Source: an uncultured Candidatus Actinomarina sp. (GTDB lineage: Bacteria > Actinomycetota > Acidimicrobiia > Actinomarinales > Actinomarinaceae). From it: DNA of 55,403 nucleotides. Shown piece after piece: positions 8,189-53,568 of this stretch. Both the position numbers and the translations under genes were made by a program. Below the pieces are notes generated by a model that did no database searches, was not told the origin of the DNA, and was given only the letters and a program-made list of their open reading frames with translations. The stretch's first letter is position 1. Every line of letters begins with the position of its first letter. The stretch spans positions 1-55,403 of the forward strand of contig CACOKA010000002.1 in NCBI GenBank assembly GCA_902627635.1, in the 5' to 3' direction.

Positions 8189-9432
8189 TGTCTACAATAA
8201 AAGATAAAAATTTAGCAACAATTGGTCAACAAGAAGTTGATTGGGCTGCAAGGCAAATGAAAGTCCTTGAGGAAATTAAGACAGAGTTTTCATCCTCTAA
8301 ACCCTTAAATGGTTTGAGTATAGGTGCTTGTATGCATGTTACAAAAGAGACGGCTAATTTAATGCTCACTTTAAAGGCTGCAGGAGCAAATGTTGCCTTA
8401 TGTGCATCTAATCCATTATCAACTAAGGATTCGGTTGCAGCTTATTTATCCGAGAATGATATCGAGGTACATGCTGTGCATGGCGTATCAAATGATCATT
8501 TTTTCAAGCATCTCAATTCTGTATTAGATACCAAACCGGATATAACAATGGATGATGGAGCAGATTTAGTAACACTATTATTAACGGACAGATCTGACAT
8601 TCCAGTTATGGGTTCAATGGAAGAAACTACAACAGGAGTGATAAGACTAAAATCTATGGAAAAAAATAATAAGTTGCGTTTTCCTGTCGTTGCTGTAAAC
8701 GATTCAGAAACGAAACATTTATTTGATAATAGATTTGGAACTGGTCAAAGCGCTATGGATGGTGTTGTTAGAGCAACAGATCTTTTAATTGCTGGTTTGG
8801 ATGTTGTTGTTATCGGTTTTGGAGATTGTGGAAAGGGAGTTGCAGAGAGAGCATATGGAATGGGTGCAAAAGTTACAGTTGTTGAGCCTAATTCTGTCCG
8901 TGCTTTAGAGGCTTTGATGCATGGTTACGAAGTAAAGAGTAGTATAAATGCTTCAAAAATTGCAGATGTAATTGTATCTGTGACAGGCAACATGCATGCA
9001 TTAGACAAACAGCATTTTGATGTAATGAAAGATGGGGTAGTTTTAGCTAACGCAGGGCATTTTGATGTGGAAATTAATTTAGAAGCATTGAAACAAGAAA
9101 GTGCTGAGGTCCATAGAGTTAGGGACCACGTAGAAAGTTATTTATATGATGGAAAAGAAATATTAGTACTTGCTGAAGGAAGGCTTGTTAATTTAGCTGC
9201 AGCATCTGGGCATCCAGCATCTGTAATGGATATGTCATTTGCTAACCAGGCATTAGCTGCTGAATGGATTAAAGAAAATCATGAAGAATTAGAACCTAAG
9301 GTTTACACTCTTCCAAACGAAGTTGATTTAAAAATTGCAGCTACAAAATTAGGACTCATGGGTGGAGAGTTAGAAATACTTACCAAAGAGCAAATTGATT
9401 ATCTTGACTCTTGGGAGCATGGCACAAGCTAA
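8188..9432 (+). CDS. ahcY: Adenosylhomocysteinase
   Basis: Short-type AhcY, 414 aa. NAD-binding GFGDCGKGVA, and EGRLVNLAAASGHP. Confidence 0.9.
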   Translation: MSTIKDKNLATIGQQEVDWAARQMKVLEEIKTEFSSSKPLNGLSIGACMHVTKETANLMLTLKAAGANVALCASNPLSTKDSVAAYLSENDIEVHAVHGVSNDHFFKHLNSVLDTKPDITMDDGADLVTLLLTDRSDIPVMGSMEETTTGVIRLKSMEKNNKLRFPVVAVNDSETKHLFDNRFGTGQSAMDGVVRATDLLIAGLDVVVIGFGDCGKGVAERAYGMGAKVTVVEPNSVRALEALMHGYEVKSSINASKIADVIVSVTGNMHALDKQHFDVMKDGVVLANAGHFDVEINLEALKQESAEVHRVRDHVESYLYDGKEILVLAEGRLVNLAAASGHPASVMDMSFANQALAAEWIKENHEELEPKVYTLPNEVDLKIAATKLGLMGGELEILTKEQIDYLDSWEHGTS

Positions 9433-21828: not shown

Positions 21829-22169
21829 GGGGGTGAACTGGCTTCGACTTTGAAGCGAGCCTCTCAGTAGCGAGCTGAGGGTCCTAGGGCCTCATTAAAA
21901 ACGTAGGAAAAAAAAGATAACTGCCAAACCTAAATTGGCCGTAGCAGCTTAATTGTTGCTCGTCGACTATCGGGGCTCCCACCTCGGATAGTATCGGCGT
22001 CGAAATGTGGGATGCTGAGTTAGATTACCGGCTAGCTTTTAAGATTTAAGGTAAAAACTATTGAGAATTTGTTTCTGGTGACTCTCTCAATAGTATTTCA
22101 CCAGATGCGCTCGGAGAAGCTGTTGGGTAGCTTAAAAGGACCGGGGTTCGACTCCCCGCACCTCCACCA
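21829..22169 (+). ncRNA. ssrA: tmRNA (SsrA)
   Basis: The 5' end GGGGGUGAACUGGCUUCGAC pairs with the 3' end ...GCACCUCCACCA, with G3:U in the acceptor stem. T-arm is GGGGUUCGACUCCCC. The internal tag frame ends ...AKPKLAVAA-TAA (21923-21952). Confidence 0.9.
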
Positions 22170-30456: not shown

Positions 30457-30531
30457 TGGGGGATGGTGTAATTGGCAACACATTGGGTTTTGGTCCCAAC
30501 GTTGAGGGTTCGAGTCCTTCTCCCCCAGCCA
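30457..30531 (+). tRNA. tRNA-Gln (anticodon UUG)
   Basis: Cloverleaf drawn by hand. Acceptor UGGGGGA pairs with UCCCCCA. Anticodon stem TTGGG/CCCAA has loop TT-TTG-GT, with the anticodon at 30490-30492. T-arm is GGTTCGAGTCC and CCA is encoded. Confidence 0.9.
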
Positions 30532-30539
30532 AAAATTAA

Positions 30540-31913
30540 ATGAGTATTTCAGGTGTAATTTTAGCTGCTGGTCAAGGGACAAGAATGAAGTCCTCTCTTC
30601 CAAAAGTTCTTCATAATGTATTAGGAATCCCTATGATTGTTTATGCTCAAGAAGCAATTAGTCATTTTGATAATAAATATGTAGTTGTTGGACATCAATC
30701 AGAAAAAGTATCCTCAACATTATCTGAAACTTTTATTCCAGTTGTACAAAAAGAACAGCTTGGTACAGGTCATGCTATTTCTACATTATTAGAGAGCAGT
30801 GAGTTTAATAGTGACCAAAGTCAATACCTAGTCGTGATTCCAGGTGATGTTCCTTTAATAAGAAAAAAAGATATAGATAAATTAGTAAATGATGTTGTAG
30901 AAAGTAATGCCGCAATTGGATTAATTTCAGCAAATGTTCAAAATCCGTTTGGGTATGGAAGAATTGTAAAAAACAATGAAGAGTTTGAAAAGATAATTGA
31001 AGAATCGGATGCTAGTGAAACTGAGAAACTCATCAATGAAATTAATTCTGGAATATATTGTATAGATATAAATTTCTTAAATTCGAATATTGGAAGTTTA
31101 GAAAGTTCAAATAATCAAAAAGAGTTTTACCTTACAGATTTAATAAATATAGCTTTTCAAAACAAACTTGAAAGGGTTATAGTACAAGTAAATGAAGATT
31201 CAATACAAGGTATAAATTCCATGAGTCAGCTGAATGATGTTGAGAACACGCTACGTAAAGAATTAATTGAATCTCATATGGAAAATGGTGTATATTTTCA
31301 AGATCCAAATTCAACATACATAGATAAATCTGTTGAGATAGCCTCAGGAGCGAAAATTCTCGCTAATTGTCATTTAACTGGAACAACAAATATTGAAAAA
31401 GATTGTGTCATCGGACCAAACTCAATAATTAATGATTCAAAAATAGGGGAGGGCTCCATTGTTCAATTTTCAGTTATTGATGAAGCTGAAATAAAAGGTA
31501 AAGCAAATATTGGTCCTTATGCTCATTTAAGAAAAGGATCTGTTCTTGATGAAAATGTAAAAGTTGGAGCTTTTGCAGAAACAAAAAATTCAAAAATTGG
31601 AAAAGGTAGTAAGGTACCCCATCTTGCCTATGTTGGAGATGCAGAGTTAGAAGAAGATGTAAATTTTTCAGCTGGAGCAATAACAGTAAATTATGACGGT
31701 AAAGAAAAACATAAAACTGAAATAAAGAAAAATGCATTTGTAGGTTCAGATACAATGCTTGTTGCTCCTGTAACTATTGGCGAGGGAGCTATGGTAGGTG
31801 CTGGGTCTGTAATTACAAAAGATGTTCCTGCAGGAGCTCTTGGTATTGAAAGAAACGATCAAAAAAACATTGAGGGCTACATGGATCGAAAGAATAAAAA
31901 AGGAAAGAAATGA
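30540..31913 (+). CDS. glmU: Bifunctional UDP-GlcNAc pyrophosphorylase / GlcN-1-P acetyltransferase
   Basis: ILAAGQGTRMKS N-terminus and C-terminal left-handed beta-helix hexapeptide repeats. Confidence 0.9.
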   Translation: MSISGVILAAGQGTRMKSSLPKVLHNVLGIPMIVYAQEAISHFDNKYVVVGHQSEKVSSTLSETFIPVVQKEQLGTGHAISTLLESSEFNSDQSQYLVVIPGDVPLIRKKDIDKLVNDVVESNAAIGLISANVQNPFGYGRIVKNNEEFEKIIEESDASETEKLINEINSGIYCIDINFLNSNIGSLESSNNQKEFYLTDLINIAFQNKLERVIVQVNEDSIQGINSMSQLNDVENTLRKELIESHMENGVYFQDPNSTYIDKSVEIASGAKILANCHLTGTTNIEKDCVIGPNSIINDSKIGEGSIVQFSVIDEAEIKGKANIGPYAHLRKGSVLDENVKVGAFAETKNSKIGKGSKVPHLAYVGDAELEEDVNFSAGAITVNYDGKEKHKTEIKKNAFVGSDTMLVAPVTIGEGAMVGAGSVITKDVPAGALGIERNDQKNIEGYMDRKNKKGKK

Positions 31914-38364: not shown

Positions 38365-38982
38365 ATGACTTCTATAAGAGACGGAAGAGCATTAAGGCAA
38401 CAAAATATTTACGACCTTAATAGGGAAAGACTGATCAATACAGCAGTTCAAGTAATTAATGAAGTTGGAGACATAAGGGAAGTAACTTTAACACAGATTG
38501 CTAAAGAGGCTGGAGTATCACCTGCAACTGCATATAACCATTTTCCTGAAAGGATGGAGGATGTGTATTCAGCTATAGTGCATTCAAAAATGGATGTTGC
38601 TGCAAATATGGGAGCAACAATTCTAGATGAGTCTTTAAGTTCTATTGAAAAAATAAAACAGATCCCTGTAACTTACGCTGAAAGTTTAATCAGCCTTGGG
38701 TACACAGGCAAGGTTCTAATAACTCAAATGTTTAATTTAATCAAAGTTGATAAATGGTTAGACCAAGACCCAGTGCAGGCTATTTCAGCGTTATTAAACA
38801 CAACTGATGAATACAAAGATCAGGCAGATGAAATTGCCCTAAATATTGCAACCGCATTCAGAGGAGCGATGTTCGAGTATGCTTTGAATATTGGCGATCA
38901 AGTACTTTTTAATAGATATACAGATGAATATTTCCTCAAAACTTCTGAAAAACTTGTAGACAATATTCTCAAACAGTACTGA
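38365..38982 (+). CDS. TetR-family transcriptional regulator
   Basis: N-terminal HTH LTQIAKEAGVSPATAYNHFP; ~200 aa, all-helical. Confidence 0.8.
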   Translation: MTSIRDGRALRQQNIYDLNRERLINTAVQVINEVGDIREVTLTQIAKEAGVSPATAYNHFPERMEDVYSAIVHSKMDVAANMGATILDESLSSIEKIKQIPVTYAESLISLGYTGKVLITQMFNLIKVDKWLDQDPVQAISALLNTTDEYKDQADEIALNIATAFRGAMFEYALNIGDQVLFNRYTDEYFLKTSEKLVDNILKQY

Positions 38983-39091: not shown

Positions 39092-42000
39092 ATGTTGTTG
39101 GGTAGTATGAGAAATAAGTACATTTATTGGTATTTAAATTTTGCGTCTTATATTAACTCGTCAACTATCAAAAAAATACTCAAAACAACAACTTACATTG
39201 CGTTATTTTCAATTGTATTTATCACTTCTTGGGCTGTGCCGCAAGAGGAGGCAAGTGCAAACAGTAACTGGCAATGTAACGATGCATATGCGAGAGCATA
39301 TTTTTATAAACTAGATTGGGATTATTCCTCTACTAGTTTCACTATTGATCAATATGTTGCAACAGAGACAACAACAATCCAGCGTACAACAGTTACTGTT
39401 GACTTTAGTTCAACATCCAATATTGCTGGAACGGTTAAAGGTATTAACGCGTTGGCGATGTCACCAACAGGGGTTATGTATGTAACCATAACTTCCGACG
39501 GGCATGGTACACATCTCTTTACAATTAATCGAGATACGACAACCAGCACAACAGCAACACTAACTCCACTAGCTCATATCGCAGACTACCAACAAGTCGG
39601 TGACAATAACTTTTATAGTGGTGTAAATGGATATTACGGGTTTTCATCAGGTGATTATGTTGTAAATGCCAACGGTAATGACCAAATTTATATGGCTCAG
39701 GCTGGTTTTGAGCATGGTTATATTTATAACGTTGCTACTGGTGGTGTGACAACATTTTCTGATCCAGGAATGGTCACCCCTATTAATGCCGCTGACTTTT
39801 CTTACATTGGAAGCTGGGATGGATATGAAATAGCAACATACAATGCGTTAGCAAATAAAGTTATACTCTACGACAAAGACAACAACACTATCTCTGAAGT
39901 TACGCCAACGAACTCTGCATTTTCTAATGTCTCAGCGACATTAGCTAGCTACAGTTACAAAACTCCAGAAGGAGAGATCCGTTTTATCATTGATGACGGT
40001 CTTGGTAACAGGTTTGAAGTAAAACGATTAGGCACTAATTCATATACAGTTGAACAAAAAGGAACAACATTTACTACAGACAACTCCGATGGTGCATCTT
40101 GTGGACCTAATGCATATGATCCATTTGGACCTACGTTTAAAACATCACTTGGCACCTGTGCTAGTGGTTACCAACAGCCATCTTTGCTTATTACCAACAA
40201 CAGAGGAACAACTCAGTACTTTGATGTACAGTACAGAATCTCCGGAGGTTCTTGGGTTGATCTATTAAATGGAGAAGAGATTACTCCAAATGGGCAGTTC
40301 CCCGCGAGTGGTATACCACAGGTATACAGTGGACAGACGGTCGAGTTCCAAATGCGGTACGGCTCATCTAATCCATCATCTGGAAATTTCTACACAGTCG
40401 GAGACCTTCTAACAGGTTCAGGTTGCGGTGATTATGCAGCTGGTACGGTAAGTACTTCTGCTGGAACATGTGATGGAGGATCCTCTACACCTTCAGTGAC
40501 ACTCACAAATACTGGTACAGTAACTACATATTTTGATGTGCAGTACAAGATTGGAAATGGGTCTTGGACAACATTCATTGACGGCGAGGCCGTCTCTGCA
40601 GGATCTCCAGAAACAATCTCTATGCCTGTCTCAGTTATAAATGGTCAACAAGTTCAGTTTCAATATCTTTTTGCCAACGCTAATCCAACAGCCACAACAG
40701 GATTTACTGCAGCCACTTCAAGAACGATAGATTGTCCAACATATTCAGCTACCATAACAGCTACTCCTGGAGCATCATGTACTAACGATTTTTTGTATCA
40801 CACTGTAACAGTAAATAATACTGGAAACACAACAATGTGGTTTGCAGTCGCAGAGAGAGACTACCGAGGTAACGCAAACTTTGATTGGATAGATTCACAA
40901 AGACAAATTCCTGCCGGAGAAAGTGCTGTATGGAACACAAGACTTGTATACAACGGTACAACTCCAGAGTACAAGATGGTGTATGGAACTTACAGATATC
41001 AGTACCAAGCTACAGATCTATCAAACGTGGGTCACACTGAAGGTACGTTTACGCAGAGACAAAATGGTAGTTATTTAAAATCTGGAGATAGTTGGGTTAG
41101 ATGGACCGCAAATAGCCCAGTAGATTGTGATTGGTGGGGTAATGGTGGAGCTGGGACAAACAGCAGTAATAATTATACTCTTGTAAGCCAGTCTACTAGT
41201 CAGATTTGTGATGGATCAGGTAATGCAACTATAAGACTAACTGTAACAAACTTCAATGCGTCAAACGATGCATACGCTGGTTTTATAGATGTTCAGTGGT
41301 CGACAAATAATACGAACTGGGTAGATGTAGTCGATGGTCGGGCATTAGCTGATGGGGAGAGTATCACTTTTGAATCGCCTGAACAGATAGCAACCTCCTC
41401 CACAGGATATTTTAGGTATCGAATTGCTGCGACAAACCCAACTGACTCTACAACAAATGCATCTTGGGCAGTATTTAGTAGAGAGGCAAACTGTATTGCT
41501 AGTTACTCACTATCAGCATCATTTAGTGAATGTTCAGCTACTGGTCAATACTCTACACTTTCAATAACCAACAACGAATCCCAGACTCTGTATTTCAGAG
41601 CAGTTCCTACAAGAAACGATACATATTATGATTACAGCTCAGCTAACGGTTTGAATTATGACTTTAATAGCGAAGCAATTACATTCTCTGTTCCGGCAAA
41701 TTCTACACTTACATATGATGCATCAAACAGTCCAAATATGAGAAAGCTTTACCCTGATGGAGCTTACGGATATATGCAGTGGATTGTGCAGGGCTCTTAT
41801 ATTGAGACACCGGATTGGACCAACACTACGGCGTATCCGTATGAACTCACTAACGGTCAAATACATCAATGTATACCAGATATCACTGCAAGTTATGATG
41901 TTACCGCCTGTAGCTCAGCTGGACAGACATCAACGTTGACAATAACCAACAACGAATCACAAACAATTTATTTTAAAGTTAACCCATCAAGAACTGCCTC

Positions 42001-45000
42001 AACACTCAGCGGAAGTTCTTCCTATAATTTGAACTACTTGACGTCAGATGCCACGACATTCTCAGTAGCTGCTAATACTACATATGTACACACTTCTGGT
42101 GCAAAAAACTATGCGGTTAATGAAGACGCTTACATGTTCTGGAGGATTCAAAAATCTTATTCAGAGAATCCAACTTGGAATACGCAAGCTTATCCTTATC
42201 AGTATTTAAGCTCTCCAACAAGTGGGTTAAGTTATCATCATGACTGTGATCTAAATGTAGATCCACATAATGACTACAATTATCAATACGAAACAAGACC
42301 TTCTAACGAACAAAATAGTTGTGTAGACAACAAGCAGTGGATGGGCTGGGTCTTGTATAACCAAAACTATAATGATGCCAACAGAACATCTCTGTGGTAT
42401 GCATTTGAGGTTTCAATTGATAACGGTGCCAATTTTAATACCAATAATCTTTTTTATAGAATGGATGATACTTTCCACGACAATGATTACTTCGCTGTAA
42501 ATAACGGTTCAGGAAGTCTTTCAGCTGACGGATACACGGCAGTTCAAGCAACAAATAATCTAAATATGGCAAATTCATCTAATAATCGGTACATATATCT
42601 TTCAACTAGGGCTGTATCAGGATCGATTATGAAAATAAGGTATAAAGTAGCGTATGCAGAGAATGAACTTGGCACAACTGAATGGATAACACTTGGAAAT
42701 CACAATAAAACTACAGAACAGAGAACTACTGATTGTGAACCTGAAATAAATTCATCTGGATGGGGAACAACTACTACTACTGATTCTGCAAACGATACTT
42801 TCAGCGATCTTGTTACTATTGGCGAATGTCAAAATACAATTGAAACTGGCGGTTTTGCACTCTCTACACTCACGCTTACAAGACCAAGCGGTGTGCAATA
42901 TTATCTGAACCTTTGGCAATCGACAGATAGTGGAAGTAACTGGACACCTATTGAAACTAATTATGCAATGGGTTCTACCTATACAAAAGAATTAACAGTT
43001 AATCATGCAGGCAAAATTAAATATAAATTTCAGTTCTCCTATATAAGTGGAGATTTCTCAAATTCTAATACCTATTATTCAGCGGAAAAGACAGTTAACT
43101 GTCCAACTGTTGGAGCTAGCACAGCATCTATTGCTTTAGGAACATGTGTAACTGGTGGTGCGACACCGACCATTACAATTGGCAACAATGGTTGGGCTAC
43201 TGGTTATTTTCATATACAGTACTCAACCGATCTGGGGCAAAACTATACCGACGCCTTCTATGATCCAAATAACGGTAACGCCACACTCTATCAGATGATT
43301 CTTCCAGGTGAGGTTAAAACATATACCATACAGGATACAATTCCTCAGGGTACGACAGTTGTTATGCAGTACAGATACGCAGCAACATCACCACCTACTG
43401 GTGCCTTCACCACCACGAATACAGTATTGATCGACTGTTCCTCTGATGTATCATCCGTAACATTTGAACAAAATACAACACCAGAACAATGTTTCAACGG
43501 TTCACAACAATTAAGGATAAATTACACGAACTCTTCTAGTACTACTAATTATTTTTATTACAAAATAAATAAGAATAGCCAGGGTTATGATACGAACTGG
43601 TCTGTCGCTACATTAAATGCAAATACGAGTAACGGTTCGGTGACTCTTCCAGAATCTTACGGAGACAATGATACTGTATTGATTAAATATCACATTGAGA
43701 GCACAGAAGGCGGATCATACGGTACAGAAGTTATAAATGATTTAATAACGATTGATTGTGGTACAGAGGACTTTTTTACAGTAAGTACAGATTATGTATC
43801 TTGTAACCTCTATGGAGCTGATAAGTTAGAGTTTAAATTTCAAAGAAACAGTACTTCAGCATCCTTTAATTACAATTCATACATTCATATAGAAGCTGAA
43901 ATCTCACATGATGGCAACATATGGAAACCACTGGGCAGAATGCAGTATTCAAACCAAAGTACCGGTAGTTGGTTCTCTAGCTCTGGAACTAAGGGAAATT
44001 TAAACGATACTCACCCTACATACTGGGGATATATTAGGCCAAGTAACTTTAGCACTGGTCATCATGTATCCGGCGTAATTCTTACTGACTCAACACATCA
44101 GTACCAAATAAGATATAGAACATATTCCTCAACGACTAACAACCTTACTATGGGTAATTTTACTGGGGTCTTTACAACATTAACTATCCCAGCAGATACC
44201 AATTGTGATCAGAATGATGTAGAACCTGTCACACTTATTACTACGCAGTTGACTTGTTTAGAAAATAAAGGACAGGTTGAGTTTACGTTTAATGACACTA
44301 CGGTTACCCATTTAGATCCTTATCAAGCTGCAAGACTTTTCTATCAATACTCAACAAACGGGGGTGTTACGTGGTCTAAACATATAGATCAGAGAGCGGC
44401 TTTATCTAATACGACAACTATTAATTTGCCAGGTGTGAAAGTAACAAATGGTACTGTGCTAAAAATGAAATGGGGTTACGTAAGAGATCATTCCATGCCT
44501 TATACTTCCAATTCTTATACGACGTATCACAACACCTATTCAAGTTCAAACCTCAACGCAAGGCAGTTTGACTATATAGGCGGTTTGACAAGTACAGGGT
44601 CATATTATGAGCACTATAGAGTTGATGATTCTTCAAATGAATTCAATGCTAATTTCATGAGCCATAATATGGTCAACACAGTAGATGTAAGTGTTGATTG
44701 TGATCCGGACTCAACTTACTCTCAAACATTAACGACTTGTGAATGTAATGATTTGGGAGCAACCTCTACATTAGAAATTACAAATAATGACAACTACACC
44801 TCTTACTACAAGGTGGAATACAAGATTGGAAATGGTCAGTGGGTATCAGCCACGGATTCCTTAGAATCTGCCTTCGATATTTCGGTTAGTGGTGGCTCGA
44901 CTAATGATAGTTTGTCAAAATTTGTTCCAGATGGAGAGACCATACAGTGGAGAATAAAAGACACAACTAATGGTGGTGACTTTGATGGTCAAGAGTGGGA

Positions 45001-48000
45001 AGAAGTAACTGCTAGTGCAACAATTGATTGTGGTTGTGCAGGCGGTTCAGTAGATATAAACGTAGGCACCTCAACTTGTGGAAACGGCTCTTCTACACCA
45101 ATCATAAACCTAGTTCCATCAAGTTCTGACACAGCTTATTTCACTGTTCAATACAAGAGAAATACTGATAACGACTGGGTTTCATTTAAGACATCGGAAT
45201 CTGTAACAAATGGACAAACTGAAAACCATACTATGCAAGTCACTGTTGTGCACCAGGGAACAATCCAAGTTCGTTATAAAGTTAATAAAATTTTGAGTAA
45301 CTTAAATGCACAGGAATGGAATTACACGGATACAAAGACAATCAATTGTCCTTATAGTTTAGTAACAGTAGAAGCACAATATTCAAGTTGTGGATCGAAT
45401 TTCAGAGCAGCAACATTTAAGGTAACTAATACCGGCGCTTCTACATCTGCTGCTAAATTCCGTGTTCAGTACAAAATTGTGACGCCTACTACAACAGTCA
45501 CAGATTGGACAAACTCCTCGTTAATAGATACTGTAGTTGCTCCAGGAGCCTCCCAGGTAAGTTCAGATAATATACAAATAACTGAAGGACAGAAAATTAT
45601 CTGGAGATACGAATCTGTCAATACTTCTGCAGACTTCTTAAACAACTGGACAGAAGATGATACAAGTGGTTATGTGAACTGTGTAATAAATGTAACAGTC
45701 ACTAACTCAATGGGTTCTTGTGATAACGGATCTCAAACAGCGACACTTAATGTAACAAATGATGAAACAAACAATACTGTTTATTTCAAGGTTCATTATA
45801 AAACTGGCAATACTTGGATTTTAAAAGATCCAAATTTAGAAGTTGGTTCCAGTTTTACAAATAGAACATTAACTGTTGATGTTCCACATGATAAAAATAT
45901 TCAATGGAAATATCAGGTTAGTAATACACCTAATGATTATGCAAATGCGGAAGTCGTAGAACTCACGGCTTCAGCTACTGTTGATTGTGTAATTCTTGAT
46001 GCAACCGGGTCTTCAGCATTTGGGTCCTGTATAAGTGGTCAAAGAAGATCAACTTTTACTATGCAAAACTCTTCTTCTGCCAATGATGGAGCATACTTTT
46101 ATGTTCAATATGATTTGAGTGGCGATAATCAATCTTGGCAGTATCACACGAGCGGCCAAGCAAATTTCGTAGGTGTGGGAGCGCAAAATGTCATACATCA
46201 AAGCGTCCCTAATGGAGAAACAATTCAATGGAGATACTATCCAATGACCTCAGCTACAGCTCCTGCTGAAAGTGACTGGATAAATGAAAGTACTCAAACT
46301 CCAGAGGATTGCTCACTAGATACACTCATCAGTCATACATTAGATACATGTATAAGCAATAGCCAGGTATCTAATTTTGTCTTAACCAACAACACGGCTG
46401 GAGAGGTACATTATCATGTCCAGTATTTTATTGAGGGTACCTCAGCATATGCTGACGCAGATAATGACTTGATACTTTCCGCAGGTTCACCACAGGGATT
46501 CACACAGACTGTAGCTTCTGGAAAATATATCCAATGGCGTTATAAAGCAGCAACTTCTAATGCTGGTTTGGCATCTGCAACCTGGGTTGATCACACTGAC
46601 AACTCCGCATTTAAAAAGACTATAAATTGTGAAAACATTGATCCGAGTGTTGTTCAATCATTTGGTCTTTGTTATAACGACACAAAGAATGTGAAGTTCA
46701 TAATAAAAAATAGCTCAAGCGCTACAACTTCAGCATATTTCAAAGTTCAGTACAAAATTGGTTCTGGAGAATGGATTGATAAATCAGACCAAGAAATAAG
46801 TGTAGGTGGTCAATTTTCACATTCACAAAATGTTCCAGCTGAACAGACGATACAGTGGCAATATAAAGTTGCAAAAACTCAAGCAGATCTTCCAACTGGA
46901 TGGACAACTTTAAATGCGACAACTATTACCTGTAATGGTGAAGATATCTCTATTACAATGGATCCCGCCTGTGATGCTAATGGCTACAAGACCTCAAAGT
47001 TAAATATATTCAACTCAAGTTCGGGAAATTTATACTATCAAGCCCAATACACATTTGAAGGAGCTAATAGCAACAACTGGACTACTGCAGCTGAACAAGT
47101 TGTGGTATCGACTGGAAATTCAACATTCGTACCAATATCTGTCCAACAGGGACAAGCAATAACGTGGAGATACAAAGTCTCTGAAACGGGAAATGATTTT
47201 GATTCTTTAACCTGGACTACACCACCGACCTCAGAGGTAGTCGATTGTACAGGGGTAAGTATTTCGACTCCATATACTTCATTAAGTCAATGTGTCTCTG
47301 GTGCAAAGACTTCAACTTTCAACTACTCCACATTGTCAAATAGCGCAAACGCAGCTTATTTCCACATACAATACAGAATTGATGGTGGAGCATGGATTAA
47401 TAAAGTAACATCCTCTGATGGAACGCTTGCTGCAGGGCAGTCTAATTCGGTTACACACTCTGTAACCTCTGGTAGTACTATCGAATGGCAATACAAAGCT
47501 GCTTACAACACCACAGCTTTAACAAATGCAAGCTTTATTTCTCTTGCAGCAGGAGCTGAAGAGGTTGATTGTGGAGTCCAACTAACAGTAAGTCATGGAT
47601 TCAGCACATGTACAAATCAAACAGCAACTTCTACACTTTTATTGAAAAACACAGGTGCAACCCCAATGCTTGTTACGGTACAATCTAAACTCAATACTGG
47701 AGATTGGGCTACCGAAGTATCGACATTTGAAATAACTGCTGGTAATGAAATATCGTTAGACAAAACAATAGTAAGTGGTCAAACGATTAGCTGGAAGTAT
47801 AAATATGCTGGAACGGTCGTAAAACTTACATCTGCATCAGAGACAACAATGGACACGATACCGGCACTAGATTGTGAAACACCTATTCTTAATCAAGTCG
47901 CTGTTAGTAATGTTCTTAAAGAGTGTGTTGCAGGAAAGAGAATATCAGAATTAACATTTACAAATAACTCAAATGAGACAGTGTATGTTGAGGCTTTGTA

Positions 48001-50329
48001 TGACACAGGGTCCGGCTACCTTCTTAAAGGAACTTATTCTGTTACTAATGGAACCCCAATGGTCCTGGAGTCTCCTAGCGTTCTTAGTGGTTCAAGTGTT
48101 AAATGGAAATATCGATTGGGACTTTCCAGTACATTAACTGGAAACTATACAGAGCTCGAAGCTTTATCGGTTAGTTGTATACAGACATCTGACGTTACAG
48201 CTGCTTTTGACGCTTGTACAAATCTAACCAGAGATTCCAGAGTCACGATTAAAAATACTGGATCATTAACCCAGTATTATCAACTCTTTTACTCAATAAG
48301 TGGTGGTTCTTATCAATTCCTAACAGAGGTAACTGTTGGAGTAAATCAGGAAAATACTTCTAATTATCAAAATTTAACCTCTGGACAATATATCAACTGG
48401 AAATGGAAGTCATCTATTGTTCAAGGTGATTTTGCTAATTCACAGGATAATTTCCTCACAAGATCTACGTCAGTGAACTGTATCGATGATAGCTTGTCAG
48501 CATCAGCAACCCCCACGTGTACCCCAAATGGAGCTACCTCAACGAAGACATCTGGATTTACAATTACAAGTAGTTCAACCGACTCAAAACAAGTTGAAGT
48601 TCAGTATTCAACAGATAGTGCTACCTATCTTGCAATGGGTACACATACTGTTAGTAGTTTGCAGCCGTATGTAGATAGTAGACCATTTACTACAAACTAC
48701 TACACCTATAGATATCGAATTTCTGGCACAACAAATTGGTCTCAACCAGTAGTCAGCGTAGCTCCATCAGACTGTTCTATAGTTACAAATGTTATCAGTG
48801 CATACAATACAAATGAATGTGTAGATGGTAGCTCATTTGCTAAATTGTCTATTGTTAACCCCGGTCAAGTTGCAACTGTAATTTATGACATCAATATCAA
48901 TAACGCAGGTTGGCAGAGTGTTGGATCACCCTCTGTAAATGGTACGTATACTTCACCTGGAGGAGTAAAAATACCAGCAAATACTCCTTTCCAATGGAGA
49001 TACAAACTAGCTACTGATACAGATTATAAATTCGTTCCCGGCACAGGAGACGACTGTTCTCAAGCTAACGCAATTACTGCTGTTACAGAAATTATATGTC
49101 CTATTGACACCAGTAGTAAATCAGCAAAATTGCGAATTATAAATGTTGGGCCTCAATCAGTTAGTGCGATGTACAACTACTCCATCAATAATGGACCTTC
49201 ACAGTCTGGTCCAGCACCGGTTCCAATAAATCCAACTTCATCGAATTACTCTATTGAAGTTCCTTTAAATGATGGAGATCAAATTGTATTTGAATATAAG
49301 CTCACAAGTGACGCAAGCTATCAACAAACACCGGCTAAATCAACTTCAGAATGCGGAGATGGTTTAATCTCAAATCCTCAATTGATTCAAACTATATCTG
49401 AATGTACTGAAAGTGCTGCCGTATCTACAGTAGAAATGAGAAACCTATCTGATCAAGTTAAGACATTTTATCTTGAATATAAATTAAATAATGGACCATG
49501 GACTAGCTATGACACAGTCACAGTTAACGCATCAAGTCCTGTAACGAGAAAATTAACGGTATCTGACAATACGACTATACAGTGGAGAGCAGTTGAAAAT
49601 AGCTTTACACAGTTCGACCTCAACTCTCCTTATCAGTTATCTCAAGCAGAAACAGTTATATGTCAGTCAGTCACTACTACAACATTGCCACCTGTGAAAT
49701 ATATATTCGAGCCAATTGTCTCAACTAACAGGGTTTGTGACTTCGAAGACGGTGGAGCAGAGTTTGGTATTACAGTAGATAATTCAAGATCTAATGTTTC
49801 TGCAAAAGTACTTAAGAAAATCTGGATCAACACAACACTCATTGCTCAAGAGACTGTCAACGTCCCAGCAGGCCAAACAATAGATTTCTCCTCTATAGAA
49901 GTAGGAGAAAATAAATTCTTTACAGTTGCTCTTGAAGTAACAAACAATGAAAATGGTAAAGTTCAAAAAATGATTAAGAACAAGGATGCTGATTGTATCG
50001 AAGATGAGCGTCCAATTAATGAGGAACAGAATCCTATCGATGAAGTAGAAGTTACTGAAAATACAGATAATGTTATGGAAGGTGATGGCGACGATCAAGA
50101 AATGGAGGATAATGGTGAATCACTCTTGTTCCTTCCAGGTGATGATTTCGTTGAATTTGTTTATATAGAGGATGCATCGAATCCATTTACACCACAATTT
50201 ACTGATGATTCCCCTCCAACACCAGGAATACCATTTACAGGTCGAAATGTTGGTGGTTTAATCATTTCATTTGGATTGATGCTAATCGGATTTGGTGCTT
50301 TTATACTAAGAAGAGCATTCAAATTTTAG
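39092..50329 (+). CDS. Giant (3745 aa) sortase-anchored modular cell-surface protein
   Basis: Uninterrupted 11.2-kb ORF. It has an N-terminal hydrophobic signal-like segment, a ~280-aa unique domain, ~29 Cys-bracketed modules, an acidic stalk, and a C-terminal IPFTG plus hydrophobic stretch plus RRAFKF. Confidence 0.9.
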   Translation: MLLGSMRNKYIYWYLNFASYINSSTIKKILKTTTYIALFSIVFITSWAVPQEEASANSNWQCNDAYARAYFYKLDWDYSSTSFTIDQYVATETTTIQRTTVTVDFSSTSNIAGTVKGINALAMSPTGVMYVTITSDGHGTHLFTINRDTTTSTTATLTPLAHIADYQQVGDNNFYSGVNGYYGFSSGDYVVNANGNDQIYMAQAGFEHGYIYNVATGGVTTFSDPGMVTPINAADFSYIGSWDGYEIATYNALANKVILYDKDNNTISEVTPTNSAFSNVSATLASYSYKTPEGEIRFIIDDGLGNRFEVKRLGTNSYTVEQKGTTFTTDNSDGASCGPNAYDPFGPTFKTSLGTCASGYQQPSLLITNNRGTTQYFDVQYRISGGSWVDLLNGEEITPNGQFPASGIPQVYSGQTVEFQMRYGSSNPSSGNFYTVGDLLTGSGCGDYAAGTVSTSAGTCDGGSSTPSVTLTNTGTVTTYFDVQYKIGNGSWTTFIDGEAVSAGSPETISMPVSVINGQQVQFQYLFANANPTATTGFTAATSRTIDCPTYSATITATPGASCTNDFLYHTVTVNNTGNTTMWFAVAERDYRGNANFDWIDSQRQIPAGESAVWNTRLVYNGTTPEYKMVYGTYRYQYQATDLSNVGHTEGTFTQRQNGSYLKSGDSWVRWTANSPVDCDWWGNGGAGTNSSNNYTLVSQSTSQICDGSGNATIRLTVTNFNASNDAYAGFIDVQWSTNNTNWVDVVDGRALADGESITFESPEQIATSSTGYFRYRIAATNPTDSTTNASWAVFSREANCIASYSLSASFSECSATGQYSTLSITNNESQTLYFRAVPTRNDTYYDYSSANGLNYDFNSEAITFSVPANSTLTYDASNSPNMRKLYPDGAYGYMQWIVQGSYIETPDWTNTTAYPYELTNGQIHQCIPDITASYDVTACSSAGQTSTLTITNNESQTIYFKVNPSRTASTLSGSSSYNLNYLTSDATTFSVAANTTYVHTSGAKNYAVNEDAYMFWRIQKSYSENPTWNTQAYPYQYLSSPTSGLSYHHDCDLNVDPHNDYNYQYETRPSNEQNSCVDNKQWMGWVLYNQNYNDANRTSLWYAFEVSIDNGANFNTNNLFYRMDDTFHDNDYFAVNNGSGSLSADGYTAVQATNNLNMANSSNNRYIYLSTRAVSGSIMKIRYKVAYAENELGTTEWITLGNHNKTTEQRTTDCEPEINSSGWGTTTTTDSANDTFSDLVTIGECQNTIETGGFALSTLTLTRPSGVQYYLNLWQSTDSGSNWTPIETNYAMGSTYTKELTVNHAGKIKYKFQFSYISGDFSNSNTYYSAEKTVNCPTVGASTASIALGTCVTGGATPTITIGNNGWATGYFHIQYSTDLGQNYTDAFYDPNNGNATLYQMILPGEVKTYTIQDTIPQGTTVVMQYRYAATSPPTGAFTTTNTVLIDCSSDVSSVTFEQNTTPEQCFNGSQQLRINYTNSSSTTNYFYYKINKNSQGYDTNWSVATLNANTSNGSVTLPESYGDNDTVLIKYHIESTEGGSYGTEVINDLITIDCGTEDFFTVSTDYVSCNLYGADKLEFKFQRNSTSASFNYNSYIHIEAEISHDGNIWKPLGRMQYSNQSTGSWFSSSGTKGNLNDTHPTYWGYIRPSNFSTGHHVSGVILTDSTHQYQIRYRTYSSTTNNLTMGNFTGVFTTLTIPADTNCDQNDVEPVTLITTQLTCLENKGQVEFTFNDTTVTHLDPYQAARLFYQYSTNGGVTWSKHIDQRAALSNTTTINLPGVKVTNGTVLKMKWGYVRDHSMPYTSNSYTTYHNTYSSSNLNARQFDYIGGLTSTGSYYEHYRVDDSSNEFNANFMSHNMVNTVDVSVDCDPDSTYSQTLTTCECNDLGATSTLEITNNDNYTSYYKVEYKIGNGQWVSATDSLESAFDISVSGGSTNDSLSKFVPDGETIQWRIKDTTNGGDFDGQEWEEVTASATIDCGCAGGSVDINVGTSTCGNGSSTPIINLVPSSSDTAYFTVQYKRNTDNDWVSFKTSESVTNGQTENHTMQVTVVHQGTIQVRYKVNKILSNLNAQEWNYTDTKTINCPYSLVTVEAQYSSCGSNFRAATFKVTNTGASTSAAKFRVQYKIVTPTTTVTDWTNSSLIDTVVAPGASQVSSDNIQITEGQKIIWRYESVNTSADFLNNWTEDDTSGYVNCVINVTVTNSMGSCDNGSQTATLNVTNDETNNTVYFKVHYKTGNTWILKDPNLEVGSSFTNRTLTVDVPHDKNIQWKYQVSNTPNDYANAEVVELTASATVDCVILDATGSSAFGSCISGQRRSTFTMQNSSSANDGAYFYVQYDLSGDNQSWQYHTSGQANFVGVGAQNVIHQSVPNGETIQWRYYPMTSATAPAESDWINESTQTPEDCSLDTLISHTLDTCISNSQVSNFVLTNNTAGEVHYHVQYFIEGTSAYADADNDLILSAGSPQGFTQTVASGKYIQWRYKAATSNAGLASATWVDHTDNSAFKKTINCENIDPSVVQSFGLCYNDTKNVKFIIKNSSSATTSAYFKVQYKIGSGEWIDKSDQEISVGGQFSHSQNVPAEQTIQWQYKVAKTQADLPTGWTTLNATTITCNGEDISITMDPACDANGYKTSKLNIFNSSSGNLYYQAQYTFEGANSNNWTTAAEQVVVSTGNSTFVPISVQQGQAITWRYKVSETGNDFDSLTWTTPPTSEVVDCTGVSISTPYTSLSQCVSGAKTSTFNYSTLSNSANAAYFHIQYRIDGGAWINKVTSSDGTLAAGQSNSVTHSVTSGSTIEWQYKAAYNTTALTNASFISLAAGAEEVDCGVQLTVSHGFSTCTNQTATSTLLLKNTGATPMLVTVQSKLNTGDWATEVSTFEITAGNEISLDKTIVSGQTISWKYKYAGTVVKLTSASETTMDTIPALDCETPILNQVAVSNVLKECVAGKRISELTFTNNSNETVYVEALYDTGSGYLLKGTYSVTNGTPMVLESPSVLSGSSVKWKYRLGLSSTLTGNYTELEALSVSCIQTSDVTAAFDACTNLTRDSRVTIKNTGSLTQYYQLFYSISGGSYQFLTEVTVGVNQENTSNYQNLTSGQYINWKWKSSIVQGDFANSQDNFLTRSTSVNCIDDSLSASATPTCTPNGATSTKTSGFTITSSSTDSKQVEVQYSTDSATYLAMGTHTVSSLQPYVDSRPFTTNYYTYRYRISGTTNWSQPVVSVAPSDCSIVTNVISAYNTNECVDGSSFAKLSIVNPGQVATVIYDININNAGWQSVGSPSVNGTYTSPGGVKIPANTPFQWRYKLATDTDYKFVPGTGDDCSQANAITAVTEIICPIDTSSKSAKLRIINVGPQSVSAMYNYSINNGPSQSGPAPVPINPTSSNYSIEVPLNDGDQIVFEYKLTSDASYQQTPAKSTSECGDGLISNPQLIQTISECTESAAVSTVEMRNLSDQVKTFYLEYKLNNGPWTSYDTVTVNASSPVTRKLTVSDNTTIQWRAVENSFTQFDLNSPYQLSQAETVICQSVTTTTLPPVKYIFEPIVSTNRVCDFEDGGAEFGITVDNSRSNVSAKVLKKIWINTTLIAQETVNVPAGQTIDFSSIEVGENKFFTVALEVTNNENGKVQKMIKNKDADCIEDERPINEEQNPIDEVEVTENTDNVMEGDGDDQEMEDNGESLLFLPGDDFVEFVYIEDASNPFTPQFTDDSPPTPGIPFTGRNVGGLIISFGLMLIGFGAFILRRAFKF
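40100..49996 (+). repeat. About 29 divergent protein-level tandem modules (roughly 95-190 aa each) delimited by Cys residues
   Basis: Hand count of the recurring pattern C-x2-G-x2-[ST]-x-[LF]-x-[IV]-x-N...YF-x-VQY-[KR]-x3-G-x-W...G-x2-I-x-W-[RQK]-Y-[KR]...[DN]-C, from Cys337 to Cys3635. I saw no long identical DNA repeats. Confidence 0.7.
50228..50326 (+). other. Cell-wall sorting signal (IPFTG, hydrophobic segment, basic tail)
   Basis: IPFTG-RNVGGLIISFGLMLIGFGAFIL-RRAFKF at the extreme C-terminus, with a sortase gene immediately downstream. Confidence 0.7.
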
Positions 50330-51988
50330 ATGGCATATTTTTTTATATATTTACTGATAATAATTATCAACATCTTTGCTGTTCTATTTGTATTAAAAAT
50401 TAGAAGAAAAAGATCAAATGATCCAGATGTCATTTCAGATGCAACACTTTTAGAAGAAAATTCAATCGAACCAATAAAAGCTAGAAGGCCTTTTTCACGT
50501 TTCAAAAAAGAAGATCCTAGTACAAATATTTTTGTTGAATATGAAGAAATTGAAGAAGATGTAGCTGAGCAAATATTTGATGGTAAATTTCTAGATATTG
50601 CTGTAAGCGAAAAAATTGTAACAAAAAAAGGTAATTGGTTTTTATATGGTGAAGAAAAACTCGGGTATGGCAAAGAAAAAGCTAAATTATATTTGCTTGA
50701 GAATCCTGATATAGCAACTGAAATAAGGGATCAATTAAGTAGTGCGAAAGAAATAGAAAATTTAATAAACCAAAAAGACTTAAAAAAAATAAATTCTGAT
50801 GATTCCGGAAATGAAATAAATCTATCTTCAGACGAAATTGAAAATCAAAAATCGCTAAGTTATGTTAATCAGAATTTTGAAGTAGAACTTTCAGAAATTT
50901 ATGTAAAATCAAATATTTTAAAAAAAGTTCTTGAGAATGCTATCGGCACAGAAGTTATTATCAGTGTAGACGTAGGTGAGAGATTTAATCCTTTAATTGC
51001 TGAGCCTGATAATTTCACAGAAGACATCATGACAATGCTAAAGGAGATAGACTATCTAACATCTGCAGTCAAAAATATATCTAAAAATGCAAAGTACTTA
51101 GGAGTTGATGTAACAAAAGAAATGTTATTAGAAAAGTTGGCATTGATGACATCTGATCGATTTTCTATTGTCTTTTCAAAAAAACCAGTTGAGAAACACA
51201 GAAACATTCCAAGACTTAAATTTGATTTACCACTAAAAAAAAACCGAAAACAAAGAGAAGTAGCAGAATCTAAAAAATCATTTGAAAGTACAAATACAAG
51301 ATCACTTCTCCCACTTGGTGTAGGTCTATTAATAGTTGGTTTTTTAATTTTGATTTATTCAATTAATCAAACATTTTTTTCTACTTCAGTGATAAATGAT
51401 GAGCAATATCTATTAGAAAATAAATTTAATGTTAGTGATGTTAAACTTTCTGAATTAAGAAATAAAAACATCGCGACTGATAGTTCATTAAATAATTTAT
51501 CTCAAACAGATGAATTTCAAGAGTCTGTCATCTCAATTGCAACAAAAACACTTACTAATCAAGCAGCAAAGGCAAAGTTTCTTCCAGATGTTGTTGGAAG
51601 GTTAACAATCCTATCTGCAAATATAAATCATTATGTAGTCTTTGGGGCAACGAGTAACAAATTAGAGTATGGACCCGGTTATATACTTGGAACTGCACTT
51701 CCAGGTTCGGGAGGAAACTTCGCAATTGCTGGACATAGAACTACATATGGTGCACCTTTCGGCAATCTTGATAAAGTTCAGATTGGTGAAACAATAATAT
51801 TCCAAACAAATACAAATCAATATGAATATCGTGTTGTAGATGTGAAGATCGTCTCTCCCGAAGATAATTATGTACTTGAGAACTATGGTGACGACAGAAT
51901 AACGTTAACCACATGTCACCCAAAATTCTCTGCAAGAGAAAGGCTTGTGGTTATTGGACAACTGGAAAGGGTAGAGGTATTTGGATAA
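50330..51988 (+). CDS. Sortase-family transpeptidase with a long N-terminal extension
   Basis: The C-terminal ~190 aa carry a sortase triad context: AIAGHRTTYGAPF (His), ITLTTCHP (Cys529, nt 51914-51916) and ARERLVV (Arg). Two TMs sit at about aa 3-24 and 327-350. The ATG directly follows the giant-gene stop. Confidence 0.85.
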   Translation: MAYFFIYLLIIIINIFAVLFVLKIRRKRSNDPDVISDATLLEENSIEPIKARRPFSRFKKEDPSTNIFVEYEEIEEDVAEQIFDGKFLDIAVSEKIVTKKGNWFLYGEEKLGYGKEKAKLYLLENPDIATEIRDQLSSAKEIENLINQKDLKKINSDDSGNEINLSSDEIENQKSLSYVNQNFEVELSEIYVKSNILKKVLENAIGTEVIISVDVGERFNPLIAEPDNFTEDIMTMLKEIDYLTSAVKNISKNAKYLGVDVTKEMLLEKLALMTSDRFSIVFSKKPVEKHRNIPRLKFDLPLKKNRKQREVAESKKSFESTNTRSLLPLGVGLLIVGFLILIYSINQTFFSTSVINDEQYLLENKFNVSDVKLSELRNKNIATDSSLNNLSQTDEFQESVISIATKTLTNQAAKAKFLPDVVGRLTILSANINHYVVFGATSNKLEYGPGYILGTALPGSGGNFAIAGHRTTYGAPFGNLDKVQIGETIIFQTNTNQYEYRVVDVKIVSPEDNYVLENYGDDRITLTTCHPKFSARERLVVIGQLERVEVFG

Positions 51989-53568
51989 TGAAAAAACTAA
52001 TTATTTCATTAATCTTTTTCTTTTCTTTTTTTAACGGTGTATACCCCAATGGATATTTAGATACAAATTTACATGATACTGATGAAGCAACTATTGAAAT
52101 AGAATCTGCGAGATTAGATGAAAATAATTTACAAATTTCATGGTTAGTTAGTGGTCTTGAAAATATTGATGAATTGATTATTTCAGTTCGTGAACTTACA
52201 TCTGATGGATTGCAAGGAGAACCATTGGAGATTATCGATTACTCTGAAAAAGGACAAGAAATTATTCAATGGGATGGGACTACAGATCTTTCGATAACTT
52301 TAAAAATTTTATCAACAAACTACACACAATATAGTGGACCGGACTGCGCTTCGGTTTATTGTTATAGAGATATTACTACTGAAATTACTTCAGATGAGTA
52401 TATAATTAACAAAATTCCTGATCTTCCTGTAATAACTACTACTGTTCCCGTCGATGATTTTATTATTGAAGAAACAGCAATTGATACATCAACAAATATA
52501 ACATTCACAAATGAGCTTATTACAACTATTCCACTCTTCAGTGATATTGATTTTTCAGATCAGGCTAAAAATGCTTTTGCATTTCTTATAACTTCTGGAA
52601 TTATATTTCTATTTTATGGAGTTTTACTAGCCCAGGAGTGGTTCAACAGAATAATTGCACACTATAGAGTCAGGTGGTCAAATCGTGAAAGCAAATTAAG
52701 AAATAAAACAAGGCTTGAGATAGCAATGGAGATAACGCTTGTGGCTCTAATTACATCTCTCTTGTATGCATTTGTTGAGGAGGGCTTCACATTTCAAGTA
52801 CGGCAAGAGAATTTAGCAATTTTTGTTGGTGTATTATTTGGACTAATTATTGTTACCTTCTTTTATGAGGGTATAGAATCTCTAATTGAATATTTTCTGT
52901 ATGACCAAATTGTGAAATTTGATTGGAATCCACAAGCCATGTTTTTTGCAGTACTCTCAACAATACTCTTCATTGTTATTGATCTTCCTTTTGGATTTAT
53001 TCTTGGTTTTATAGCAGCAATACATGTAGTTTCGAAGAGACCAAAAGCGGAATTGTCACCTAAATTTTATTCAATGATAAGTCTTTCAATTGTTGGATAT
53101 TTCTTCTTCTACGCAACATCATTTGAATCGGTTAGCTCTTCAGGTGTTTTAATGGCAATTTGCAAACTTACTTACTTAATGTGTTTAGAGGGAGTTATAT
53201 TTAAAGCAGTTCCTTGGGGAGGGAATGAGTTATTTGATGCAATTGGTGACTCAGATGGAATTTATCAGGCAATGCCAATTGTTAGCTTTTTGATAAGTAT
53301 CTGGCTATTTATAAGAATTCTTGTCTTACCACCTGACAGTGAGTTTAATGAATTACAACAAACTTTATTACAGAGTGGAGAGCTAGCTTACAGATTCATG
53401 CTTGTTTTATTAATTTATATATTCATAATTTTACTACTAGGTAACTTCATGAAAAAATATGCTGAATTGAATAGGCCTGCTGACTATGAAGAAAGTTTAA
53501 AGATTGATGATGAAGAAATTATAGATTTAATTGATGATGACCTTAGCGAATCAGTAAATGAGTGGTAA
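51988..53568 (+). CDS. Polytopic membrane protein with a signal peptide and N-terminal ectodomain, unknown function
   Basis: I prefer the ATG at 51988 (MKKLIISLIFFFSFF, a signal-like start; TAATG overlap with the sortase stop) over the listed 51913. A ~200-aa ectodomain is followed by about 7-8 TMs and an acidic tail. Confidence 0.6.
   Translation: MKKLIISLIFFFSFFNGVYPNGYLDTNLHDTDEATIEIESARLDENNLQISWLVSGLENIDELIISVRELTSDGLQGEPLEIIDYSEKGQEIIQWDGTTDLSITLKILSTNYTQYSGPDCASVYCYRDITTEITSDEYIINKIPDLPVITTTVPVDDFIIEETAIDTSTNITFTNELITTIPLFSDIDFSDQAKNAFAFLITSGIIFLFYGVLLAQEWFNRIIAHYRVRWSNRESKLRNKTRLEIAMEITLVALITSLLYAFVEEGFTFQVRQENLAIFVGVLFGLIIVTFFYEGIESLIEYFLYDQIVKFDWNPQAMFFAVLSTILFIVIDLPFGFILGFIAAIHVVSKRPKAELSPKFYSMISLSIVGYFFFYATSFESVSSSGVLMAICKLTYLMCLEGVIFKAVPWGGNELFDAIGDSDGIYQAMPIVSFLISIWLFIRILVLPPDSEFNELQQTLLQSGELAYRFMLVLLIYIFIILLLGNFMKKYAELNRPADYEESLKIDDEEIIDLIDDDLSESVNEW

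Follow-up and report, generated by a model that had tools for sequence, protein, structure and literature searches.

The window analysed here is a stretch of 55,403 nucleotides from an uncultured Candidatus Actinomarina sp. (contig CACOKA010000002.1). An uninterrupted open reading frame (ORF) on its forward strand (50330..51988) encodes a sortase of 552 amino acids plus stop. The protein has two transmembrane helices, TM1 and TM2, and the loop that separates them contains a RecA C-terminal domain (CTD) and a second domain of orphan fold. Full-length orthologs of 543–555 residues occur in Ca. Actinomarina single-amplified genomes (SAGs), metagenome-assembled genomes (MAGs) and metagenomes.

A Kyte–Doolittle scan identified exactly two segments in the 552-residue protein that are hydrophobic enough to cross a membrane, at residues ~3–24 and ~326–349. 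TM1 (residues 3–24, 50336..50401, forward strand, as are the other features of this gene and its operon), in which 19-residue windows score up to 3.09, is predicted to run N-out/C-in: only two residues precede it, and the number of Lys and Arg residues rises from none before it to four in the RRKRS sequence that follows. Within the TM1 region N14, I15, A17, L19, V21, L22, R25 and R26 do not vary, even in orthologs with an overall identity of 52%. TM2 (residues 326–349, 51305..51376), recognised by its hydropathy, anchors the catalytic domain. It is preceded by a basic juxtamembrane stretch (residues 291–325, 51200..51304, net charge +7) of variable sequence and constant Lys/Arg-richness, and there is no Lys or Arg within 15 residues on its C-terminal side. 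The loop of about 300 residues between the helices (residues 25–325) is therefore predicted, by hydropathy and charge, to be cytoplasmic according to the positive-inside rule, and also because the sortase catalytic domain must lie outside the cell; both the C-terminal domain and the N-terminus would then be extracytoplasmic. These results confirm TM1, its RRKRS flank and the Lys/Arg-rich flank of TM2 as described in the original prediction, which had been made from the sequence without database searches. Its two-helix arrangement and the positive side of the membrane also stand, with the correction that the inserted region is about 300 rather than about 320 residues long, and nothing in the hydropathy or charge supports a location of the loop outside the cell.

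An ordinary, complete sortase starts at TM2, and TM1 and the loop are an addition to it. We considered an internal start that would give an ordinary short sortase, and rejected it: there is no in-frame ATG, GTG or TTG between residue 274 and TM2 in the window. The loop itself is made up of a variable linker 1 (residues 25–82, 50402..50575; pLDDT, the predicted local distance difference test score, below 50), of which residues 60–82 are acidic with a net charge of −8; the RecA CTD module (residues 83–137, 50576..50740); a variable, acidic and polar linker 2 (residues 138–175, 50741..50854, net charge −4); the second conserved cytoplasmic domain, which we call Dom2 (residues 176–290, 50855..51199), an orphan helical/β fold recognised from conservation and an AlphaFold2 model; and the basic stretch. 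TM2 is followed by an extracytoplasmic stalk (residues 350–420) and the sortase catalytic domain (residues 421–552), which together occupy 51377..51985.

The identity of the RecA module is established by sequence profiles and by structural comparison. The peptide FLDIAVSEKIVTKKGNWFLYGEEKLGYGKEKAKLYLLENPDIATEIRDQL (residues 87–136, nucleotides 50588–50737) lies where the original prediction had placed a segment homologous to the RecA CTD. Pfam RecA_C (PF21096) matches residues 85–137 with E=1.2e-17 and 64.2 bits (gathering score 27), covering positions 1–53 of the 57 in the profile, and the most divergent orthologs still score 57–60 bits. A phmmer search of the Protein Data Bank (PDB) found mycobacterial and E. 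coli RecA chains at E ~1e-8. The AlphaFold2 model of the whole protein is poor (mean pLDDT 46), because the alignment is shallow, and we used only its RecA_C part, where pLDDT is 74–82. This part superimposes in Foldseek on the RecA proteins of M. tuberculosis, M. smegmatis and E. coli over 55–58 residues with a root-mean-square deviation of 0.8–1.5 Å and a probability of 1.00; the matches comprise about 50 crystal and cryo-EM structures of RecA, with 38–44% identity to the crystal structures. The homology to the RecA CTD is thus borne out by PF21096, phmmer and Foldseek, and so is the location of the homologous segment within the loop, except that it begins at residues 83–85 and not at residue 87.

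The rest of RecA is missing, as had also been claimed. The ATPase core (PF00154) has no Pfam match in the 552-residue protein, the NCBIfam recA equivalog TIGR02012 matches over positions 267–319 of 321 only (39.4 bits against a cut-off of 325), and a tblastn search with E. coli RecA found residues 271–320 only, a match confined to the sortase gene both in the window and in related Actinomarina loci. The same search showed the bona fide recA of the organism to be absent from the window and from all Actinomarina loci examined. When a family profile of residues 55–145 was compared with 135 RecA-type sequences, most alignments began at residues 82–84. We also looked for remnants of a RecA core ahead of the CTD and found none; a few alignments reach weakly to about residue 71 (‘VEYEEIE’ against RecA ‘AEFDIxYG’), an extension that we regard as unproven. 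We conclude that the module is a genuine Pfam RecA_C domain, and that the protein as a whole is not a RecA.

The C-terminal part of the protein matches the Pfam Sortase family (PF04203, MEROPS C60) with E=1.5e-29 and 102.7 bits (cut-off 26.6) over positions 1–124 of the 125 in the profile, and TIGR01076 (sortase_fam) with 71.8 bits (cut-off 39.35). Among the six class models, class E scores highest: NF033747 aligns with residues 335–548 over positions 10–208 of 211 at 114.9 bits, compared with 82.2 bits for class C and 74–80 bits for class D. The residues H469 (in AGHRTTYG), C529 (in TLTTCHP) and R538 (in RLVVIG) are invariant in six sequences at 52–100% identity. On these sequence comparisons the protein is a sortase, closest to class E; because 114.9 bits falls below the curated cut-off of 160, we use the label class-E-like and do not regard it as a certified member. 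The full sortase domain that had been described after TM2 is accordingly present, as a class-E-like domain at residues 335–548. The source annotations of the orthologs read only ‘LPXTG-site transpeptidase (sortase) family protein’.

The two modules in the loop are conserved to much the same degree as the enzyme. Identities were averaged over pairs of 15 representatives that are less than 93% identical in the loop, and ratios of nonsynonymous to synonymous substitution rates (dN/dS) were calculated by the Nei–Gojobori method for six pairwise comparisons. Mean pairwise identity is 79% for RecA_C, 83% for Dom2 and 85% for the sortase domain, with dN/dS of 0.00–0.18, 0.06–0.28 and 0.04–0.17, respectively. 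For linker 1 the corresponding values are 57% and 0.19–0.52, and for linker 2 they are 43% and 0.25–1.1; the basic stretch has an identity of 48%, and its dN/dS lies within the 0.19–1.1 spanned by the linkers overall. RecA_C and Dom2 are therefore under purifying selection like that on the catalytic domain, while the linkers drift. From this sharp contrast it follows that the loop consists of two folded, constrained modules carried on drifting linkers, and is not a decaying relic. A fusion relic had been one of the options originally offered; it is disfavoured by a purifying selection on RecA_C as strong as that on the catalytic domain. The other option, that the domain was taken up to regulate the enzyme from the cytoplasm or to bind a partner, may hold.

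Dom2 has no relatives that we could identify. There is no match in Pfam (E≤10), none among PDB sequences using a family profile, no match to its fold among PDB structures (Foldseek, best E=0.59, template modelling score 0.26) and none among viral predicted structures. The AlphaFold2 model of residues 165–300 has a pLDDT of 79 and a predicted template modelling score of 0.72, and is reasonably confident; its elements run helix–strand–helix–helix–strand, the first two helices being long and the third short, and the long paired helices in this model suggest a role in oligomerisation or as a scaffold. We dropped an origin of Dom2 from RecX, given that the model contains β strands and that there is no RecX match. 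An exhaustive HMMER search of 1.84 billion representative proteins with the cytoplasmic region alone gave only 13 proteins at E≤1e-10, the strongest of them fragments or divergent members of the family, and hundreds of weaker matches to the C-terminal ends of RecA proteins.

The fusion is found in every Actinomarinales clade sampled. A search of 5.8 billion proteins gave 785 clusters at E≤1e-5, of which the best 120 are all 544–554 residues long with both Pfam domains, and a member with 62% identity, used to seed another search, added 717 further clusters of the same kind. A scan of one genome per species located the gene in Ca. Actinomarina/Actinomarinales SAGs and MAGs at 99%, 83%, 68% and 62% identity, two of the Actinomarinales contigs that carry it being about 1 Mb long. 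Metagenomes scanned with the most divergent fragment as seed yielded full-length orthologs of 543–545 residues, at 52–53% identity to the window protein, which keep TM1, RecA_C, the second domain, TM2, the sortase domain and the same neighbours. Thus the RecA_C segment is retained in orthologs down to 52% identity, and no ortholog was seen in which the N-terminal part is a separate gene. Two short contigs assigned to other groups also carry the gene: L003 (CAJWWC010000029.1, from a ‘Flavobacteriales bacterium’ MAG, 83%) and L005 (NYXO01000060.1, from a ‘Methanobacteriota archaeon’ MAG, 80%). Both occurrences are most likely binning contamination, and apart from these the architecture was not found outside Ca. 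Actinomarina/Actinomarinales in the protein, genome and metagenome searches.

An artefact, in which the similarity to RecA arose by chance, or two genes were joined by a frameshift or by a chimeric assembly, would be in keeping with two observations: some database entries are shorter (243–477 residues) or have only one of the Pfam domains, and one entry, P0412, is a chimeric ORF in which the N-terminal part is joined to a Trans_reg_C domain. The shorter entries are, however, contig-end fragments, alternative starts or truncations at a run of A. More than 700 clusters at 90% identity have both domains and a length of 543–555 residues, and they come from SAGs and from short- and long-read assemblies of separate samples; the divergence among assemblies (52–99% identity) excludes a common template error; and the frame is open and under purifying selection throughout, with a Pfam E value of 1.2e-17. 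We regard an artefact as extremely improbable. The fusion is real, lineage-wide and selectively maintained, and so far confined to Ca. Actinomarinales.

We note some features of individual entries. The run of A lies in the basic juxtamembrane stretch (window ~51228–51240) and coincides with cut-off ORFs in long-read assemblies; P0393 ends there. On the long-read contig L001 (1–10000) the giant gene upstream of the sortase, described below, is split into about 11 ORFs, presumably by homopolymer errors. Several metagenomic ORFs of 96–124 residues (P0136, P0155, P0174 and P0258) have RecA_C after unrelated sequence, for example half a cold-shock domain; they may be stand-alone RecA_C proteins, or chimeras produced by assembly or gene calling.

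The sortase gene is part of a conserved group of genes. Directly upstream, with its TAG stop abutting the ATG of the sortase, lies a gene for a giant protein of 3745 residues (39092..50329), to which the sortase gene is translationally coupled. The giant protein starts with a long signal-like sequence, contains many repeat modules of about 100 residues bracketed by Cys, and has no Pfam domain. The G+C content of this gene is 37–41%, above the ~31% found elsewhere in the window. The protein ends in a canonical cell-wall sorting signal (50228..50326) comprising IPFTG, a hydrophobic stretch of 22 residues and RRAFKF; its orthologs have LPVTG, FPRTG, FAKTG or FADTG at the equivalent site, with a similar hydrophobic and basic tail. 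A sorting signal is present on the upstream protein in every clade examined, and the order of giant gene and sortase is kept in loci L002, L004, L006–L008, L018 and L025. The giant protein is thus likely, from its sequence, to be the substrate of the sortase. The motif varies among clades from LPXTG-like to class-E LAXTG-like (window 50228–50242; L006, L007, L008, L018 and L025), and this variation accompanies a sortase that stays 52–99% identical between Actinomarina clades.

Downstream, a gene for a membrane protein of 526 residues (51988..53568) overlaps the sortase stop in a TAATG sequence and is translationally coupled to it. The protein has a signal peptide, about 190 extracytoplasmic residues and then seven hydrophobic segments, and gave no match in Pfam. 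The ORF list begins this gene at 51913; the orthologs point to 51988. Its end is overlapped by the gene for a Thr/Ser-rich protein of 289 residues (53558–54427) that has an N-terminal hydrophobic anchor, a long mucin-like tract and a C-terminal domain with HETSH, an HExxH metalloprotease-type motif. The order of giant gene, sortase gene, 526-residue gene and Thr/Ser-rich gene is conserved in every clade examined. PADLOC identified no defence system for the sortase or its two downstream neighbours. The window thus almost certainly contains a real, conserved gene of Ca. Actinomarina for a class-E-like sortase that is dedicated to, or co-expressed with, the giant LPXTG-type protein encoded upstream, and the operon very probably builds a major surface structure.

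A TetR-family regulator (TetR_N, E=5.5e-7) is encoded directly upstream of the giant gene (38365–38982, forward strand) and may regulate the operon. Elsewhere, the window contains a tmRNA gene (21829–22169, forward strand; tag AKPKLAVAA), a tRNA-Gln(ttg) gene (30457–30531, forward strand), secA (9411–12035) and glmU (30540–31913).

The function of the RecA module was considered by comparing, column by column, 135 RecA-type CTDs with 241 members of the sortase family, using E. coli RecA numbering. The module keeps the residues of the RecA fold (G272, D276, G288, W290, Y293, G299, G301, L309, N312 and P313) and the equivalent of E303. K99 and K115, which correspond to RecA K286 and K302, are both invariant in the family; homologous pairing and the binding of double-stranded DNA reportedly require these RecA residues (PMC4666392, citing Kurumizaka 1996 and Aihara 1997). 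Other positions have changed in an equally invariant manner: Q300, a Gln that is 99% conserved in RecA, is replaced by Y113, S287 by K100, N304 by K117, A/S289 by N102, S292 by L105, K/R310 by L123 and E271 by Asp. Of the lysines, K100, K117 and mostly K98 are specific to the family. The net charge of the central segment (residues 95–119) is +5.0±0.45 in the family compared with +1.9±1.2 in RecA-type CTDs, and that of the whole domain is +2.7 compared with −2.6. Tyr113 and the extra lysines on the DNA-contact segment suggest a polyanion ligand, most simply duplex DNA. The new hydrophobic positions, for their part, would favour a protein or intramolecular interface.

We tentatively propose that the RecA-derived module is a tether that binds DNA or another polyanion. 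Outside the membrane, the domain containing His469, Cys529 and Arg538 would cleave the Φ-[P/A]-x-T-G signal and link the giant protein, which in this scheme is co-translated with the sortase, to the wall. Inside, the module would act as a polyanion-binding foot, with no recombination chemistry. Its most probable ligand would be duplex DNA in the nucleoid (a body that occupies most of the volume of these very small cells), contacted by way of the retained RecA ‘gateway’ lysines K99 and K115 and reinforced by K100, K117, mostly K98, and the invariant Tyr113. Dom2 would probably oligomerise or stiffen the loop, and the acidic flanks may damp the binding in the manner of RecA's own acidic tail. 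In sum, the sortase, and hence the site at which the giant protein is anchored, would be positioned or restrained relative to the chromosome and membrane. A stronger version of this idea, which seems unlikely, has the sortase physically coupled to the chromosome. Wall anchoring would then take place where the nucleoid is attached, by a built-in ‘transertion’ tether, or would be gated by the condition of the DNA, such as damage from UV in surface waters.

Several points weigh against DNA as the ligand. The isolated RecA CTD reportedly binds double-stranded DNA weakly, according to NMR work. Essentially every RecA CTD has K286 and K302, which could persist for the sake of the fold or by inheritance. 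The clade of the window is less basic than the others, residues 83–137 having a net charge of −1, and the flanking linkers are strongly acidic. The invariant hydrophobic replacements S292 to L105 and K/R310 to L123 look more like a protein–protein or intramolecular interface. The two-helix topology is a prediction from hydropathy and charge alone, and there is no established biological reason for a contact between a sortase and DNA.

Some of these points lead to a different explanation, namely that the RecA-CTD fold no longer binds nucleic acid and has been repurposed for docking, recruiting together with Dom2 a cytoplasmic partner that localises or regulates the sortase; a divisome or elongasome protein, a component of the Sec or SRP machinery and RecA itself would be examples. 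The cytoplasmic helix-turn-helix fold of RodZ, which binds MreB rather than DNA, is an example of such a change. Docking would account for invariant changes where RecA itself has a polar or almost fixed residue (Q300 to Y113, S292 to L105, K/R310 to L123 and A/S289 to N102), and for strong purifying selection that extends beyond the lysines to nearly all residues of the module. The RecA CTD itself makes protein contacts, as in the LexA–RecA filament (8trg) among our Foldseek matches, and an accessory module on a class E sortase has a precedent in the SafA-like fusion of Bifidobacterium (PMC9282373). On the other hand, the operon offers no cytoplasmic protein, its products being a giant secreted protein, the sortase, a multi-transmembrane protein and a Thr-rich secreted or anchored protein; and the gain of positive charge on the DNA-contact segment is not predicted by docking, although it is compatible with an acidic partner. 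We consider docking almost as likely as the tether, though both are rather doubtful.

The added region could also be no more than an anchor and spacer, in which the extra helix and a bulky loop hold the sortase in place by turning a signal-peptide-like anchor into an internal, uncleavable helix, and the RecA_C piece is ligand-free filler from a 3′ fragment of recA. The class E sortases of other Actinobacteria do have a cleavable, signal-peptide-like anchor, and need SafA against signal peptidase (PMC9282373). There is, in addition, no AXA-type site after TM2 (SINQTFFSTSV), and streamlined genomes favour fused solutions. However, filler is not expected to hold 79% identity and a dN/dS of 0–0.18 beside drifting linkers, nor to gain invariant family-specific surface substitutions and extra lysines. 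A passive role would explain TM1 and not the conservation of the module, and we think it distinctly improbable.

Sortases are usually treated as simple, singly anchored ecto-enzymes, and their internal positioning and regulation are poorly understood. Here an entire, globally abundant marine lineage with a streamlined genome of about 1 Mb keeps, on a sortase that may be its main one, 300 additional residues in the cytoplasm, and the cost of keeping them argues for a real link from the inside of the cell to the outside. The protein is also a natural experiment for RecA, in that the CTD has been freed of the filament, remains under selection and is altered at Q300Y, N304K and S287K; it could reveal what the domain does alone. 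If the module binds DNA, the interest would be considerably higher, since wall anchoring would be linked to the chromosome: a chromosome-coupled sortase would be the first with a nucleic-acid-binding cytoplasmic domain, and would show the RecA CTD binding DNA autonomously in nature, away from the recombinase filament. The envelope of Actinomarina is essentially uncharacterised (PMC7771536); the operon, with its giant wall-anchored protein, sortase, seven-transmembrane protein and Thr-rich HExxH protein, is probably what builds the surface of these cells. The isolated domains are experimentally tractable, even though the organism is uncultured.

The RecA CTD (PF21096; approximately residues 270–328 of E. 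coli RecA; NMR structure 1AA3) and the module in the sortase are alike in being followed by an acidic, poorly conserved stretch. They differ in that the sortase module has no ATPase core and so cannot join a RecA filament within a protomer, in that it is tethered to the membrane between two transmembrane helices, and in that its central segment is about 3 charge units more positive.

With the class E sortases of Actinobacteria (for example SrtE1 of S. coelicolor, PDB 5CUW, and SrtA of Actinomyces oris) the protein shares an actinobacterial host, its best NCBIfam class, the His, Cys and Arg residues, the TLxTC motif and a single helix directly before the catalytic domain, and its sequence matches in the PDB include SrtE1 and SrtE-type enzymes. 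The FA[K/D]TG of the most divergent Actinomarina clade resembles the class E signal LAxTG; in contrast, most Actinomarina clades use Φ-P-x-T-G (IPFTG, LPVTG, FPRTG). TM1 and the 300-residue cytoplasmic loop before the anchor helix are unique to the Actinomarina protein. The closest precedent is offered by class E sortases of Bifidobacterium that are fused to a SafA-like domain (PMC9282373); they likewise have an extra module in cis, and show that the family tolerates a fusion with an effect on membrane behaviour. That module is, however, a small C-terminal transmembrane element that antagonises signal peptidase, and is unrelated in sequence, position and location to the N-terminal helix and two soluble domains found here.

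Our literature searches turned up no report of a RecA CTD on a sortase, nor of a sortase with an N-terminal TM–loop–TM architecture, and neither sortase nor recA is mentioned in the two Actinomarinales genome papers (PMC7771536; bioRxiv 10.64898/2026.04.03.716425). This agrees with the original prediction, whose author had not seen a RecA CTD fused to a sortase. The combination appears to be undescribed, and to be a variant of sortase rather than a new kind of system. The coupling of an extracytoplasmic or envelope activity across the membrane to a cytoplasmic nucleic-acid-binding fold is familiar from RodZ and from regulators of the ToxR/CadC type. These proteins have no relationship in sequence or fold to the one described here, none of them is a sortase and none has a RecA CTD; they nevertheless provide functional models for DNA binding at the membrane and for protein docking alike.

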